A DNA stretch of 59,012 nt from Candidatus Daviesbacteria bacterium (GTDB lineage: Bacteria; Patescibacteriota; Microgenomatia; Daviesbacterales; UBA10151): contig JACPZA010000032.1 in NCBI GenBank assembly GCA_016195715.1, positions 1 to 59,012 on the forward strand, in the 5' to 3' direction. Below are positions 53,546-59,012 of this stretch, piece after piece. The notes beneath the pieces are model-generated. The model did no database searches and was not told the DNA's origin. It was given only the letters and a program-made list of their open reading frames with translations. Made by a program: the position numbers and the translations under genes. Each line of letters starts with the position of its first letter. Within the stretch, counting starts at the first letter, position 1.

Positions 53546-53589
53546 GAGCTTTGCTCATTGTGGCATTCTACAAGAGCTTTGCTCATTGT
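53546..53589. repeat. 16-nt direct repeat GAGCTTTGCTCATTGT (two copies, 12-nt spacer)
   Basis: Copies at 53546-53561 and 53574-53589; same motif at 25575-25589. Confidence 0.75.
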
Positions 53590-54529
53590 CTTACTAAAGG
53601 AATTATCTTTTGTGAACTTAAAGCTGGTTTTAAGGCTAGTTTTAGCCGTCATTTTTGCATTAATTGCTTTCATCTTTTCGGAGGTCGTACCGGACCTTCC
53701 CCCATTTAGTCATATTTTTTTGCGAATTATTATTACATTTTGGTTTGGTTTAATGGGGTTTGGTCTATTTCCTGAAGTCGCTCAAAGGTTTAGACAGCTA
53801 ACTTTGTCCACAATTAATTTATTAACTACTAGAGTAAGCAGCGAGGTGATGAGTCAAATTATGAGACTTCCTCAACAATCTTCAGTTCATGTCCCAATGC
53901 GCCACCACGCACCGCTTGGTGGAGTAGCAGCTAATCAACCTTTAATTTTAGATACTAGTGCGATTATTGATGGAAGAATTTTAGATATCGCTAAAACTGG
54001 CTTTATTTCTGGAATTTTGCTTTTACCTAGCTTTGTCTTAGCTGAGCTTCAACAGGTGGCTGATTCATCGGATTACCTAAAAAGAAGCCGAGCCAGGCGA
54101 GGTTTTGAGATTATTGAGGATTTAAAAAAAATCAAGGGATTTAGAATAGAGATTTGGGATAAAGAACCAGTTGCTAAAACAGTTGATGATAAATTATTAA
54201 AATTAGCTAAAAGCTTAAATGGCAAAATTATTACTACTGATTTTAACTTAAATCGTGTAGCTTCAGTTTCAGGGATTAATGTCTTAAATATTAATGATCT
54301 TGCCAATGCAGTCAAAACTTTAGCTATTCCTGGAGAGAATTTAACCATTAAGGTTATTCATATTGGTAAAGATGCCAAACAGGGTGTAGGTTATTTAGCT
54401 GATGGAACCATGGTAGTTGTAGAAAATGGTGCCGAACTGGTTGGAAAAGAGATTAAAACTGAGGTTACCAGAATGCTTCAAGTTCCAGCTGGAAGAATGA
54501 TTTTTGCTAAAAGAAATAGCTCTAAATAG
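53558..54529 (+). CDS. PIN/TRAM domain membrane protein (YacL-like); true start possibly slightly downstream
   Basis: ILDTSAIIDGRI, ELQQVADS, RRG, TTDFNLN and GVGYL.DGTMVVVE motifs. Confidence 0.9.
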   Translation: MWHSTRALLIVLLKELSFVNLKLVLRLVLAVIFALIAFIFSEVVPDLPPFSHIFLRIIITFWFGLMGFGLFPEVAQRFRQLTLSTINLLTTRVSSEVMSQIMRLPQQSSVHVPMRHHAPLGGVAANQPLILDTSAIIDGRILDIAKTGFISGILLLPSFVLAELQQVADSSDYLKRSRARRGFEIIEDLKKIKGFRIEIWDKEPVAKTVDDKLLKLAKSLNGKIITTDFNLNRVASVSGINVLNINDLANAVKTLAIPGENLTIKVIHIGKDAKQGVGYLADGTMVVVENGAELVGKEIKTEVTRMLQVPAGRMIFAKRNSSK

Positions 54530-54626
54530 ATCAAACTATCTGCTTAGTTGACAACTTAGCGATTTCTTATATAATTTCAATCCCTGCAATACTACCCATC
54601 AAATCTGCCTAAGTAAATTTTAGGCT

Positions 54627-54713
54627 ATGCTATATTTTGGTATATTTACAGTTGGATTTTATCTTGGAATAATGTTTCTTTTGTTGATTTCCAAAGATAA
54701 AGAGAAAAATTAA
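54627..54713 (+). CDS. 28-aa single-TM microprotein MLYFGIFTVGFYLGIMFLLLISKDKEKN
   Basis: Hand translation; TTGACA-16-TATAAT at 54548-54575 upstream; below the ORF track size cut-off. Confidence 0.45.
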   Translation: MLYFGIFTVGFYLGIMFLLLISKDKEKN

Positions 54714-55662
54714 ATTAAATTTTCCAGTTTAACTTCTGGGAAAACTGTTCTGTATCCTGTATATTTTTTAACGGAAGGACCCTTTTAATCTTACTTTCAA
54801 CTGGTAATAAAAAAAGGCCTTAGAGACTATTAAAGTTAATTATCTTTAATTTTAAGATAGCCTATTGTGATTTAGATTGTTAAGACAGGCTCTTTTTAGG
54901 TTATGTAGGTTTTATTACGTAAGACTTATCAGTATATTTGATACTGTTGATATAAAAGACTAATTTTCAACTATAAGTCTAATTTTATCAATTTTAAGGT
55001 TATAGCTATTAAGTAGGTATTAATGATTAGTAGGATAAATATTTTTTATTAAGTTGCTATTTAGTTTTAACTTATTTTAAATACAGATAAATAATATAGA
55101 TATATAGGTAGTTATATGTATAACAATAGAATATCTTTTTTCTCTATATGTAGAATATAATTTTACTTATCAAACTTATATAATTATTTATATTCTTTAA
55201 GTAAGTATTTATTATATATAAAAAATATATCCAATAATTTTTTAATAGCATTCTTTTTTTAGTTAAGAAAATAGACATAAATATATCATTAAATCTTTAC
55301 TAGTTTTAATTTATAACTCAAATATATTGTTATATCAGTCTAATAATGAATCAAATAATTACTCAATGAAATAAAGATATTCATTCATTATTATTTTTAC
55401 CTGAGGATTTATTTTAGATGATATTATCTTATAATATTTTCTTTAAAAATCTAATTATTAATCTATATAAAATCACATAAAACTTATCTTTTGGCCAAAA
55501 AGAGGCTAATTTTGCGGCTTTTAGGGGCATTTTTGTGACCTATTTAAGTATCATTTTTATAATTTGTAAACATTTAAAATAATAACTCTAAAAAAAATTA
55601 TAATAATTTGAATCCATAAAGATTATATTGACACCAGTTATCATTAATGTTAACAATTTATT

Positions 55663-58600
55663 GTGTACAAAAGACTGAAAGCTGCTGAAAAAATTAATCT
55701 TATTCAAAGAGTTAAGCTAGGAGAGAAGATTTCCAAGGTATGTAAAGAGGTAGGTATATCTAGAACTATTTTTTACTCTTGGCAAAACCAATATCAAAAT
55801 TCTTCTAGTAAAAATCGAGTTTTCAGTTCAGAAGACACTAAGCAATATAGTCACCCTAGAAAAATTTCCAGGAAAATCGAAAACCAGGTTATCAAATTTG
55901 CTATCAATAACCCGGATCTTTCTATAAATAAAAATAGTCTTCAAACAAAGGTGAGTGTTTTTACTATTTGGAAGATTCTTAAAAAATATAACCTAGATAC
56001 CAAATCAAAAAGACAAGCTTACAGAGAGCGGAATGGTAGCAAACTTATCCAGGAAGTGGATTTCAACACTAGAGTTATGCTTGTTCGCCGTTATCTTGCC
56101 GGAGAGAATGTGACTAAAATCTGCACAGACTCACATATTTCCAGAACTCTTTTTTATCGTTTACTAAAAAGGTATCAACTGGCAGGTGATCAGGATCAAA
56201 ATAAGGCCTTAAAAAGCCTAAGACCAAAAGGAGTAAAACACTGGCGTTATAATCCTGAAGTTGAAAATTTAGTCCTAAGAGAAGTTATAAATAAACCAGA
56301 GTTGTCAGTCCATAAAATAAGCCAGAAAGTAAATGAGCAGGCAGGCAAAAGAGTTGTCAGCAGCTTTGGAGTATATAACATTCTAAAAAGACACAACTTG
56401 AATACTTATGAATATAGGCTACGCTTTGCAAATCAAACTATTGAGGCTAAAGCTCTGCCAAGAGCAGAACAACCAGCGACGATGACAGATTCAGCTTATC
56501 GATCACAATCAATCTCGACCATTCCTCCTCCTAATAAAATCTCACAATTCACAAGAGTCAGTTTAGCTCAAGCTACCCTAGGGATCTTTTCGGGTTTGTT
56601 GGTGGGAATTGTAGGATTTGGTTTTTATTCATTAATCATTTTAATTATTCATGGGCCAACTCTAGCTCATTCAATTGGGATTTTTTTAGCCTCTATCTCA
56701 TTGATCATTGGCTTATTTTTCTTAATTTATTCCTTAAAATACTATTTTACTATTGCAGTTATTCTATCTTACTCACGTCAACTGATAGATTCAGAAAAGC
56801 CTAACAACTTAGAAACTAATATATCAAACTATTACAACAAAGGAGTTGGATTGATACCAGATTTATCAGCAATTGATTTATCTAGAAAGCCATTTATCTC
56901 TATCCATCTAGCTACATATAATGAAACAAAAGTCATTGATAGACTACTTACTGCAGCTACCTCCATGGAGTATGAAAACTATGAAGTAATATTAGCTGAT
57001 GATTCTACAGATGAAACATTAGAGATATTAAAGAAATGGACAAATCACCCCAGAGTCAAGATAGTCCATAGACCAAACAGAGAAGGCTACAAAGGTGGAG
57101 CATTAGGTTATGCCCTAAAACAAACTAATCCCAAAGCTGAGTTTGTAATTATCTTTGATGCAGATTTCATTCCCTATCCTGATACCATCATCCAGTTTCT
57201 AAAGTACTTCCAATCAGTAGCTGGTGGTTTAGATCCAAAACAAATTCATCAAACTAACATTGCAGCTATCCAAGGTTATCAATGGCATGTACTAAACAAA
57301 TCAGAAAACTGGATCACCAGAGGTGTTAGATCTGAATATGCTGGTAGCTATGTTATTGAAAGATCAGGTATTGAGATCTACTCAGGGCTAAAACAGATAG
57401 CAGGATCTGTTTATATGATCCGAGCTGATGTATTAAAAAAGATTGGCTGGGGTAGATCAATTACTGAGGACTTTGAGCTAACTTTAAAGATGTATCAAGC
57501 TGGTTACAAGGTAGTCTTTACTCCATATATCCAAGCTCCAGCTGAAGCTGTCTCTACCATTAAAAGATTAATTAGGCAAAGAATGAGATGGGCAGAGGGT
57601 CATTCCCATAATATTAGGAAAATGTTTTGGCAACTAGTTAAAAGCTCTAATTTAACAGTTCCAGAAAAGCTAGAATTTGCTTATCTTTCTCCATATTATT
57701 TGCAATCTTTTTTCTTTATTGTAGGAACTCTATCTTGGTTTTTAGCTGAGGTAGTTTTTCAAGCTGGTCTGCCTTTTTGGACAGCTATTTGGGGATGGAG
57801 CTTGGTTTTTACTAACTTGCTGGCTCTGCCTTTGATGAATATAGTTGGATTGTTTCTAGAAGAGTCAAATGAAAAAGATTATTTAGGAATCTTTTCCTTT
57901 GTAGTCTTATCTTATGTGGTAGCTCCTTTTCAAGGCTATGCTGCGGTTAAAGGATTTTTAGAGAAAGAGGAAGGAACCTGGTTTAGGACACCAAAAACTG
58001 GTCGAATCACAGATATCTATACCAAGGGAAGGTTTTATCGATATATCTTTGGAATTTTTGGTAAATCAGTTTTTTCTAAAGGTAATTTAAAAGCTTCTCA
58101 AACTCTATCTTATGCAAATCAATTAGCTACAAATCAGCTTCCAGCTGGCAATACTTATGTCAACTTAAAAACTTCAGCCAATAGTTTTAGTTCTTTTACT
58201 ATTAAAAAATCTAAAAAATTCTGGTGGATAGGAAAAGTAGCTTTGTCAACTTTGCTGATTGTCTCAACAACTCTACTTTATTTATCTCGCAACGTTAAAT
58301 TAGTTTATGCTACTAACTGGTCTAGTCCCCTTAAACTAGATACTGGTGCCGGAGAAGGCACTTTTCCTTCATTTGGCAATTATTTATCAAACAGTACTAC
58401 TTATGGTGCCGGAGATATTTACGTTGGTCGGAGAAATCAATTTAACTCTGGAACTAATAACTATGTTTGGTACACTAACCTTTGGCCAACTGGCACAATT
58501 AATGCCAATATCCCAGGCGGAAATTACTATATTCAGCTGGTTAAAAGTGGAAACAGTGCTACTACCAATACTGCAAATCTTTTTATGCAGCTTTTATTAT

Positions 58601-59012
58601 CAAACAATGACGGAACTGATCGGGCTCAACTATTAAGCAATTCCTTTCAGCTAGCTACTACTAATGCAGATAATACAGTATTTCAATTTCTATTAGGCAA
58701 TGCCGCTGGTAATAATATTGTCTCAACAGCTCAAAATCGTTTGAGTTATAGATTTGGACTATCCAATGGTTTTAGTACCTCAAATACGCCTTTTATTAAT
58801 TTTTTAATTAATAATAGTGGTGCAGAATCTACTTTAATTACTCCAGCTAATATTACAGTTCCAGAGATACCTAAAAAGGTTATCTTTTTTGCCATGATTA
58901 TTATACTGCCAATTGCTCCAGCTTTAGTTTCAGGTAGGTTTAGAAGACCCAAACGGGGTATCTTTGAAGAGGCGAGTCTGGCTTGGCTTGATCTAATAAG
59001 AAGACTAACAGG
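55663..59012 (+). CDS. More than 1116-aa fusion, 3'-truncated by the window: two IS481-like HTH modules, TMs, processive GT2 glycosyltransferase, extracellular domain, VPE-TM
   Basis: Hand translation from GTG at 55663 shows no stop to the window end. Motifs: ADDS, FDAD (DAD 57157-57165), TED (57463-57471), QRMRW (57577-57591), WFRTPKTG. Confidence 0.88.
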   Translation, partial: MYKRLKAAEKINLIQRVKLGEKISKVCKEVGISRTIFYSWQNQYQNSSSKNRVFSSEDTKQYSHPRKISRKIENQVIKFAINNPDLSINKNSLQTKVSVFTIWKILKKYNLDTKSKRQAYRERNGSKLIQEVDFNTRVMLVRRYLAGENVTKICTDSHISRTLFYRLLKRYQLAGDQDQNKALKSLRPKGVKHWRYNPEVENLVLREVINKPELSVHKISQKVNEQAGKRVVSSFGVYNILKRHNLNTYEYRLRFANQTIEAKALPRAEQPATMTDSAYRSQSISTIPPPNKISQFTRVSLAQATLGIFSGLLVGIVGFGFYSLIILIIHGPTLAHSIGIFLASISLIIGLFFLIYSLKYYFTIAVILSYSRQLIDSEKPNNLETNISNYYNKGVGLIPDLSAIDLSRKPFISIHLATYNETKVIDRLLTAATSMEYENYEVILADDSTDETLEILKKWTNHPRVKIVHRPNREGYKGGALGYALKQTNPKAEFVIIFDADFIPYPDTIIQFLKYFQSVAGGLDPKQIHQTNIAAIQGYQWHVLNKSENWITRGVRSEYAGSYVIERSGIEIYSGLKQIAGSVYMIRADVLKKIGWGRSITEDFELTLKMYQAGYKVVFTPYIQAPAEAVSTIKRLIRQRMRWAEGHSHNIRKMFWQLVKSSNLTVPEKLEFAYLSPYYLQSFFFIVGTLSWFLAEVVFQAGLPFWTAIWGWSLVFTNLLALPLMNIVGLFLEESNEKDYLGIFSFVVLSYVVAPFQGYAAVKGFLEKEEGTWFRTPKTGRITDIYTKGRFYRYIFGIFGKSVFSKGNLKASQTLSYANQLATNQLPAGNTYVNLKTSANSFSSFTIKKSKKFWWIGKVALSTLLIVSTTLLYLSRNVKLVYATNWSSPLKLDTGAGEGTFPSFGNYLSNSTTYGAGDIYVGRRNQFNSGTNNYVWYTNLWPTGTINANIPGGNYYIQLVKSGNSATTNTANLFMQLLLSNNDGTDRAQLLSNSFQLATTNADNTVFQFLLGNAAGNNIVSTAQNRLSYRFGLSNGFSTSNTPFINFLINNSGAESTLITPANITVPEIPKKVIFFAMIIILPIAPALVSGRFRRPKRGIFEEASLAWLDLIRRLT

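Follow-up and report, generated by a model that had tools for sequence, protein, structure and literature searches.

The minimal core of cellulose synthases consists of two transmembrane (TM) helices, a glycosyltransferase (GT) domain, two further TM helices, an interface helix, a gating loop and two last TM helices, and the FxVTxK gating loop of BcsA binds the uridine diphosphate (UDP) of the substrate (PMC8892547). In the exosortase field, Haft described the tripartite C-terminal sorting signal as a signature motif followed by a TM helix and a basic cluster, and took an enzyme adjoining its target as the criterion for a dedicated sorting system. Here we analysed a 59,012-nt contig (JACPZA010000032.1) of a Candidatus Daviesbacteria bacterium, hereafter the window, whose last gene encodes a predicted polysaccharide synthase of family 2 glycosyltransferase (GT2) type with a transposase-like helix-turn-helix (HTH) head and a tail that resembles a sorting signal.

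The Patescibacteria, or Candidate Phyla Radiation (CPR), make up a large share of bacterial diversity, and their episymbiotic life depends on a cell surface that is almost unknown. The family to which this gene belongs joins a BcsA-like synthase that lacks the usual cyclic di-GMP (c-di-GMP) switch, a domesticated transposase head, and an exosortase-type tail with a private mini-exosortase, a combination not described before. Indeed, in the literature on Patescibacteria or CPR with glycosyltransferase, HTH, transposase or exosortase we found no description of the family, and one paper on CPR and cellulose synthase was unrelated. We regard the interest as high for the family and somewhat lower for this truncated copy.

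Domain order of the synthase

The gene and the domains of its product are located as follows (coordinates in the window, strand, amino acids (aa)):

55663-59010, +: synthase gene, 1116 codons open, GTG start, runs off the contig end
55663-56037, +: HTH module 1, aa 1-125; three-helix bundles at 7-46 and 70-108; Pfam HTH_23, HTH_28 and HTH_29
56038-56448, +: HTH module 2, aa 126-262; three-helix bundles at 134-173 and 198-243; Pfam HTH_28, HTH_32 and IS481 profile
56578-56772, +: TM1-TM2 hairpin by hydropathy, aa 306-370; returns the chain to the cytoplasm
56878-57642, +: GT2 catalytic domain, aa 406-660; DDS446, DAD499, TED601, QRMRW639
57709-57945, +: TM3, TM4 and amphipathic interface-type helix by hydropathy, aa 683-761
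57973-58002, +: gating-loop-like motif GTWFRTPKTG, aa 771-780; invariant in alignment A3
58228-58284, +: TM5 by hydropathy, aa 856-874; preceded by the basic cluster KKSKK; leads out of the cell
58294-58857, +: ectodomain, aa 878-1065; single jelly-roll beta-sandwich of about 190 aa
58858-58956, +: tripartite tail; VPE 1066-1068, TM helix 1073-1091 (VIFFAMIIILPIAPALVSG), RFRRPKR 1092-1098
58957-59010, +: start of the subfamily cytosolic tail, GIFEEASLAWLDLIRRLT...; relatives end ...LDELPV

The protein is, in architecture and family, very probably a membrane-embedded processive GT2 polysaccharide synthase of the BcsA type. Pfam GT2 models matched above their cutoffs at aa 413-716, and the full set of D, DxD, TED and QxxRW, which an earlier note on this DNA had read from the letters alone, was found in the four catalytic motifs listed above, all of them invariant in alignment A3. 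The same note had also placed TM helices, a WFRTPKTG motif (WFRTPK773), an Asn/Thr/Gly-rich beta domain and a TVPE-TM-RFRRPKR end along the chain, and all of them lie where it put them. The conserved motif LYSLKYY stands after the TM1-TM2 hairpin, and TM3 (683-701), TM4 (714-732) and a weaker amphipathic helix (740-761) follow the catalytic domain in what is the best-conserved region of the family (aa 683-761, column conservation 0.79). From QxxRW to the gating-loop-like motif the distance is 134 aa, where BcsA has 124 aa, and behind the motif come two TM helices; compared with GKFNVTAKGG of E. coli BcsA, the T, the K and both G residues are kept, with W for F and R for V, and PgaC has no gating-loop motif. 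We assigned the BcsA-type gating loop by motif and position, not by structure, and in a profile search of solved structures with the synthase core the alignment was restricted to the GT domain and left out the TM and gating part. The TM layout equals the minimal core exactly, save for the 190-aa domain inserted between the last two helices. Neither Pfam nor NCBIfam gave a PilZ match, and no other known regulatory domain was seen.

The inserted domain was predicted by AlphaFold2 (aa 878-1072) as all-beta, with a predicted local distance difference test score (pLDDT) of 86.3 and a predicted TM-score (pTM) of 0.84. Its best Foldseek matches were the C-terminal beta domains of CocE/NonD hydrolases (TM-score 0.55-0.60, E about 2e-6), with jelly rolls of capsid and TNF type ranking next, and in larger relatives ectodomains of up to about 2,500 aa occupy the same place. 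By position and fold, a BcsB-like role, the handling of the emerging glycan, would be the simplest reading of this jelly roll.

Integrity of the gene and conservation of the fusion

The ORF (open reading frame) 55663-59010 lies in frame +1 and is open to the final base of the window, with zero stops in 1116 codons. Since the window is the entire contig, the gene is 3'-incomplete, and we estimate from full-length relatives that about 12-15 C-terminal codons are missing. The GTG start at 55663 is backed by homologs beginning MYKKL..., and the recorded gene call P0002, of 979 aa, starts at Met139 and omits module 1. The earlier note called this ORF absent from the ORF track; with the 979-aa call on record, the gene had been called in part.

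A whole-protein search returned 661 matches, and the best 120 are 700-1937 aa long, share 36-55% identity and nearly all carry both HTH and GT2; named sources among these 120 are Roizman-, Curtiss-, Gottesman- and Nomurabacteria and Microgenomates. An exhaustive search gave 475 representative clusters at E<=1e-30, and 343 relatives were found in GTDB species representatives, where one genome often carries several paralogs. The best 74 GTDB loci come from Woese-, Curtiss-, Gottesman-, Davies-, Chisholmbacteria and other Patescibacteria, a few being labelled Chloroflexota, and the HTH head is present in 67 of the 78 N-complete genes of these loci. The family is large, widespread and specific to Patescibacteria, which are ultra-small bacteria of groundwater, with a few members labelled Chloroflexota; all its members are very probably membrane-embedded processive GT2 synthases of the BcsA type. 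Many records of metagenome-assembled genomes in loci L010-L083 are titled 'uncultured Gammaproteobacteria bacterium', Bathyarchaeia or Nevskiaceae, which are probably placeholder or wrong labels and not the true hosts. Identity to the closest relative is 55%, a distance that saturates synonymous sites, and conservation was therefore gauged at the protein level. Judged from more than 100 relatives that keep both parts at 36-55% identity, the HTH-GT2 fusion is old and under constraint, and the survey across CPR that the earlier note had called for thus bears out its architecture.

We also considered that the fusion might be an artefact, namely a chimeric assembly, a recent IS481 insertion before a GT2 gene or a decaying pseudogene, a suspicion fed by a gene call that leaves out module 1 and by the location of the gene, which stands last on the contig and has 1.1 kb of AT-rich, non-coding sequence before it. 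One groundwater study provided four metagenome runs whose Logan contigs tile 55400-59012 with zero differences, and the HTH-TM-GT2 junction is crossed by single Logan contigs of three runs (56221-56987, 56213-57016 and 56457-57179), again with zero differences, so that, across these three runs, unitigs cover 56213-57179 free of differences and joints. The frame has no stop, the domain order is identical in more than 100 independent assemblies at 36-55% identity, and a DDE domain and terminal repeats are both lacking, which leaves the artefact a negligible chance. The chimeric join and the recent, decaying insertion sequence (IS) that the earlier note had named as grounds for dropping its proposal were both looked for and neither was seen; chimera, recent insertion and pseudogene are effectively refuted by the junction-spanning contigs, intact in three runs, and by the conserved fusion.

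The HTH head

On profile and fold evidence, the head is clearly derived from the DNA-binding region of an IS481-type transposase. Pfam HTH_23, HTH_28 and HTH_29 matched twice each and HTH_32 once, and the NCBIfam IS481 transposase profile NF033577 reached 89 bits (cutoff 224) in two stretches, over profile positions 2-109 of 284. An IS481-type N-terminal bipartite HTH is thus present by profile and by fold, and the two tandem modules proposed earlier are matched by Pfam and NCBIfam at both places. The further proposal that no DDE domain follows them also held, as profile positions 110-284 were unmatched and Pfam gave no rve match; in addition, no terminal inverted repeats flanking the gene were found. 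Modules 1 and 2 are 33% identical to each other (E 3e-18), which indicates a tandem duplication, and each shows 32-41% identity with the N-terminal part of an IS481-like protein of 328 aa, the figure for module 2 and the N-terminus of the IS481-like P0233 being 41%.

AlphaFold2 modelled aa 1-262 from a 26-sequence alignment with pLDDT 90.7 as four three-helix bundles, two per module. The top PDB fold matches of the head were the Pax5, Pax6 and Prd paired domains and the DNA-binding domains of Tc3, Mos1, SETMAR, CENP-B, TnsB, MuA and IstA, and all of these proteins are bipartite DNA binders; a sequence search of solved structures with the HTH region gave no match. The head holds 53 K/R against 22 D/E residues (net +31, pI (isoelectric point) 10.2), and it is strongly basic in all 26 relatives, with net charges of +14 to +40. 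Column conservation is 0.52-0.56 in the HTH parts versus 0.34-0.39 in the linkers, and occupancy among relatives is about 70-80% for module 1 and 0.96-0.98 for module 2. A stand-alone protein of 342 aa with both HTH modules and a TM helix, without GT2, is encoded in locus L002 (P0228, 8468-9496), 0.5 kb upstream of a full synthase.

The tail and the exosortase genes of relatives

The window protein carries TVPE at aa 1065-1068, then VIFFAMIIILPIAPALVSG, then RFRRPKR, which is the tripartite build of a sorting signal. Nearly every complete family member has [T/I][V/I]PE, then a TM helix that often contains ..APFIP.. and then a cluster of K/R, independently of the kind of ectodomain; the strict pattern was found in 51 of 64 C-complete genes of the GTDB loci, and about six more have VPD or YPE (about 57/64). 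Full-length relatives of the LDELPV type, the subfamily to which the window protein belongs, continue for 30-33 residues past the basic cluster and end ...LDELPV or ...ELDV (about 40 residues past the element), and most other members continue for a median of 8 residues. Among all other ORFs of the window and of loci L001-L007 (about 180 kb), none has VPE-TM-basic or a shared tripartite tail. We consider the tail a candidate exosortase signal; its place in the chain also makes it look like the last core TM helix of BcsA-type synthases.

Exosortase genes were found beside the synthases of relatives. In L003 a 225-aa polytopic protein encoded 87 nt downstream of the synthase passes the exosortase/archaeosortase model TIGR04178, in L007 a 189-aa protein does so, and in the LDELPV-type loci L006 and L002 TIGR04178 proteins of 179 and 192 aa lie about 5.6 kb downstream. 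These four mini-exosortases scored 33.8, 26.7, 34.2 and 27.9 bits (cutoff 23), and C120, R164 and H184 are invariant across them (alignment A5). The cutoffs of named subfamilies were not reached (XrtG 15.7 vs 102.75, XrtM 27.2 vs 125, XrtH 19.7 vs 86). Counted over complete synthase genes with sufficient downstream flank, exosortase ORFs were distributed as follows, every one of them on the same strand as the synthase:

At most 1 kb downstream: 32/60 loci (flank at least 1 kb)
At most 6 kb downstream: 27/35 loci (flank at least 6 kb)
Anywhere in the locus: 48/60 loci

The search for exosortase genes suggested in the earlier note therefore succeeded in relatives, where such genes lie regularly downstream (32/60 within 1 kb), and found none in the 59-kb window itself.

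Other recurrent neighbours in relatives, none of them present in the window, are YfhO or PMT_2 GT-C enzymes, small GT2 enzymes, a methyltransferase and an epimerase. Moreover, a 617-624-aa polytopic protein with C-terminal tetratricopeptide (TPR) repeats, 44-58% identical among loci, follows the synthase in 4/4 loci of the LDELPV/ELDV type and does not occur in the short-tail loci examined. For this 620-aa partner the TM count is ambiguous and would allow the TPR repeats on either side of the membrane; the acidic C-terminal peptide of the synthase may dock into the TPR domain. The membrane/TPR partner genes are located as follows:

L001: 13496-15346
L002: 14376-16250
L006: 9372-11225
L005: 13297-14220

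The promoter element and the MerR genes

A conserved element lies directly upstream of the synthase gene:

55628-55657, +: promoter-like element; TTGACA, 17-nt spacer with the near-palindrome GTTATCATTAATGTTAAC, then TAACAA(T); full sequence TTGACAccagttatcattaatGTTAACaat

The element was detected both by promoter scan and as palindrome I15, with TTGACA-N15-17-GTTAAC at 55628-55654. Only about 6 nt separate its 3' end from the GTG, and the synthase mRNA may hence be leaderless. TTGACA-N15-17-GTTAAC(A/T) also stands upstream of family genes in L001, L002, L003, L005, L006 and L007, the stand-alone P0228 of L002 is preceded by its own TTGACA..GTTAAC copy, and in many loci a second conserved block, (G/A)T(T/A)ACCCAC, accompanies the element. 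In 1.21 Mb of loci we found 32 copies, 28 of them at HTH-bearing genes, and the element was upstream of 22/67 HTH-positive versus 0/11 HTH-negative family genes. We treat it as a candidate target of the HTH head. The earlier note had left the choice between transcription and chromosome anchoring; the basic HTH region together with this upstream element favours, as far as sequence can tell, action of the head at its own promoter.

A small divergent MerR gene was found upstream of the synthase in 24 of 78 N-complete loci, for example:

L001: 9412-9750, -
L007: 5238-5561, -
L005: 9105-9410, -
L006: 5283-5594, -

The MerR proteins of L001 and L007 end in a TM helix and are membrane-anchored, and the versions of L005 and L006 look soluble. 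Elements with a 19-bp spacer had a MerR neighbour in 11/15 cases versus 2/7 for those with 17-18 bp (p=0.07, a trend only). The MerR type of promoter, with a spacer of 19-20 bp and an adjacent MerR gene, was found in L001, L005, L006, L007 and others, and the window element has a 17-bp spacer and no MerR ORF.

Proposed mechanism and alternative explanations

We propose a topology in which the cytoplasmic HTH head, with its two paired-domain-like modules and net charge of +31, would be followed by TM1-TM2, the cytoplasmic GT2 domain, TM3-TM4, the interface helix, the UDP-binding gating loop, TM5, the extracellular jelly roll, the last TM helix and a short cytosolic tail. The enzyme would polymerise a UDP-sugar and extrude the chain via its own TM channel, and the jelly roll over the channel exit would handle the nascent glycan as BcsB jelly rolls do. 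IS transposases repress their own promoter within the terminal repeat; here the head would bind DNA, most likely the element in its own promoter, and act as a membrane-tethered autoregulator. Further, we predict that the VPE-TM-basic tail would be recognised by a dedicated mini-exosortase, encoded in this subfamily about 5.6 kb downstream and hence beyond the contig end. We lean, with some reserve, towards this overall picture of a processive synthase with a DNA-binding head and an exosortase-recognised tail. Quite improbable, in our estimate, is a more specific form of it, in which one polypeptide would do three jobs: the head would bind an operator left over from the IS terminal repeat, domesticated along with it and now serving as its promoter (TTGACA..GTTAAC), in a feedback loop of the membrane-bound synthase on its transcription, the core would extrude the glycan, and the mini-exosortase would cut at VPE and transfer the C-terminus of the ectodomain to an envelope acceptor, possibly the exiting glycan itself. 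In the subfamily of the window, docking or control of this processing would be a further task, fulfilled by the LDELPV tail together with the 620-aa membrane/TPR protein.

Several of our results weigh against parts of this picture. For the core, the substrate is the weak point: the GT domain is 24% identical to E. coli PgaC (74 bits) and 25% to BcsA (65 bits), and the scores fall far short of the equivalog cutoffs (CelA 62.9 vs 699.1, PRK11498 49 vs 992, PgaC_IcaA 94.9 vs 422.3), so that the polymer is unassignable. For the head, nucleic-acid binding is plausible from fold, charge and ancestry only, and the fold-search E-values were weak (0.06 or worse), as expected for small, flexibly linked bundles. 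The strict element stands at only one third of HTH-positive genes, and in the window TTGAC-N14-22-GTTAAC was found once versus 0.20 expected, with at least one in 16% of shuffles, which is not significant alone; the weight of the element comes from its position and recurrence, not from this count. It overlaps the -35 and -10 and may simply be the promoter, and a MerR gene stands beside it in many relatives, so MerR may be the binder instead. This leads to an explanation that we hold to be somewhat unlikely, in which the head is no longer a sequence-specific binder at its own promoter and serves instead as a cytosolic regulatory, scaffold or oligomerisation module in the place that PilZ has in BcsA, or as a non-specific nucleoid tether, the element being a MerR or sigma promoter. 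The divergent MerR genes, their association with the 19-bp spacer that is a MerR hallmark, one element copy upstream of a MerR gene and the overlap with -35 and -10 would all follow from it, as would a head occupying the regulatory slot of a family without PilZ or another known regulatory domain; moreover, GISRTxFYxW is generic to HTH_28 and is no proof of a shared target. Yet the element is kept without MerR nearby in the window, L002 and L003, it also precedes the HTH-HTH-TM protein P0228, it is missing from all 11 HTH-negative family genes, and strong basicity in 26/26 members would be unneeded by a pure protein-protein module. Weighing these points, we judge the chances that the head binds DNA at its promoter to be even.

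The tail is subject to a similar tension. NCBIfam sorting-signal models, including PEP-CTERM, gave no match at E<=10 for ten tails (the window and nine relatives), and the tail is not C-terminal, at least 18 residues following it in the window. Only two TM helices come after the gating loop, and cutting the last would remove a BcsA-type core helix. Exosortase, MerR and TPR-partner genes were all missing from the 59-kb window, in which the contig ends inside the synthase gene. The resemblance to PEP-CTERM signals drawn in the earlier note thus stands for the tripartite build and the exosortase gene beside relatives, and fails for the profile check, in which none of the ten tails matched, and for the terminal position. 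The tail helix is the sixth core helix, and cleavage there would cut the core, so that either the cut helix stays bound, or processing stops activity, or the exosortase does not cut there. If it does not, VPE-TM-basic would be an uncleaved last structural helix, equivalent to BcsA TM8 and shaped by the positive-inside rule, and the exosortase would act on other proteins or on the glycan pathway. We find this doubtful: [T/I][V/I]PE is kept at the outer membrane face across unrelated ectodomains, an exosortase gene is directly adjoining and co-oriented in half of the loci, and the tail occurs on no other ORF in about 180 kb (window and loci). It does agree with the number of TM helices past the gating loop, which is exactly two and equals that of the minimal cellulose-synthase core, with conserved prolines (APFIP) while the ectodomain varies, which fits co-evolution with the core, with the failure of the sorting-signal profiles, with the approximately 40 residues past the element in this subfamily, and with exosortases being common in exopolysaccharide loci without a synthase as target. 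For processing of the tail, the two outcomes seem to us equally probable on the sequences compared.

Flanking sequence and contig end

The upstream neighbour (53558-54529) encodes a membrane-anchored PIN and TRAM protein, with PIN at 26.5 bits (above the cutoff) and a weak TRAM match; nothing evident connects it with the synthase. A perfect sigma-70 consensus promoter (TTGACA-16-TATAAT) lies at 54548-54575, with a hydrophobic 28-codon mini-ORF 3' of it (ATG 54628 to TAA 54714, MLYFGIFTVGFYLGIMFLLLISKDKEKN; no Pfam match) and a terminator-like hairpin 3' of the mini-ORF at 54720-54743; the segment 54548-54743 may be a small membrane-peptide gene. The following 870 bp or so (54750-55620), 5' of the synthase, are very AT-rich (GC fraction about 0.2-0.26) and hold no ORF, RNA family or tRNA, and in the whole upstream 1.1 kb (54530-55662) we found no tRNA, credible Rfam match, ORF longer than 50 aa or convincing repeats. 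Long gene-free stretches also lie 5' of relatives; that of L003, about 2 kb, contains 2.2 copies of a 243-bp tandem repeat, each with an extra GTACCCAC..TGTTAACA site.

At the other end, a 3,090-nt Logan contig of run X1, whose first 1,140 bases equal 57873-59012, reaches about 1.95 kb beyond the window, and a 993-nt Logan contig of run X3 extends 374 nt beyond it; public reads can thus supply both the lost C-terminus and the gene that follows. In one X3 contig a stretch of 107 bases unlike the window comes before the match, which joins at 56953; this contig is probably a paralog or a related strain with a shared conserved GT2 start. An exact-match scan of JGI (Joint Genome Institute) metagenomes for contig extension gave no match.

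Significance and comparison with known systems

If the head binds the element, a bacterial transposase DNA-binding domain and its site would have been domesticated together, and an enzyme located in the membrane would control its own gene. Should the tail be processed, this would be the first exosortase substrate that is a glycan synthase, and it would open to direct experiment the long-standing question of what exosortases link their targets to.

Among exosortase/archaeosortase systems (XrtA/PEP-CTERM, ArtA/PGF-CTERM, XrtG), the family is alike in its tripartite tail and, in relatives, in a TIGR04178 partner with Cys, Arg and His beside the presumed target in a glycan locus. Unlike them, its tail matches no catalogued signal, the partner is a mini form of 179-225 aa belonging to no named subfamily, the presumed target is a polytopic enzyme and not a secreted protein, and in the subfamily of the window the signal is internal. 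The head resembles the IS481 transposase N-terminus, the Pax paired domain, CENP-B and SETMAR in its bipartite HTH pairs, its match to profile positions 2-109 and its paired/transposase fold matches, whereas in contrast to IS481 transposases it has no DDE domain and no terminal inverted repeats, and its module is tandem-duplicated and tethered to a membrane enzyme. As in transposase autoregulation within the IS terminal repeat, a conserved DNA element overlaps the gene's own promoter. ToxR and CadC likewise place a cytoplasmic DNA-binding-type head (known here by sequence) on a membrane-spanning body; theirs are OmpR-type winged-helix domains with a periplasmic sensor, unlike the enzyme of the window protein.

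BcsA-BcsB, including the fused AcsAB, shares with the window protein the processive GT2 motifs, the interface helix, the gating loop (G-x-[FW]-x-x-T-x-K-x-G) with its spacing from QxxRW and the 2 + 2 + 2 TM layout, and in BcsB, too, a C-terminal TM helix joins an extracytoplasmic jelly roll to the synthase. The window protein differs from BcsA in being only 25% identical and far under the hidden Markov model cutoffs of CelA/BcsA, in having neither PilZ nor any sign of c-di-GMP control, and in its HTH head, which is unknown in BcsA; unlike BcsB, its jelly roll is inserted between the last two core helices and is not a separate subunit. Four points are new here: the ectodomain is a small jelly roll of CocE-like type, the tail helix maps onto the minimal core of BcsA, the LDELPV-tail subfamily has a membrane/TPR partner, and a trend links MerR genes to the 19-bp spacer.

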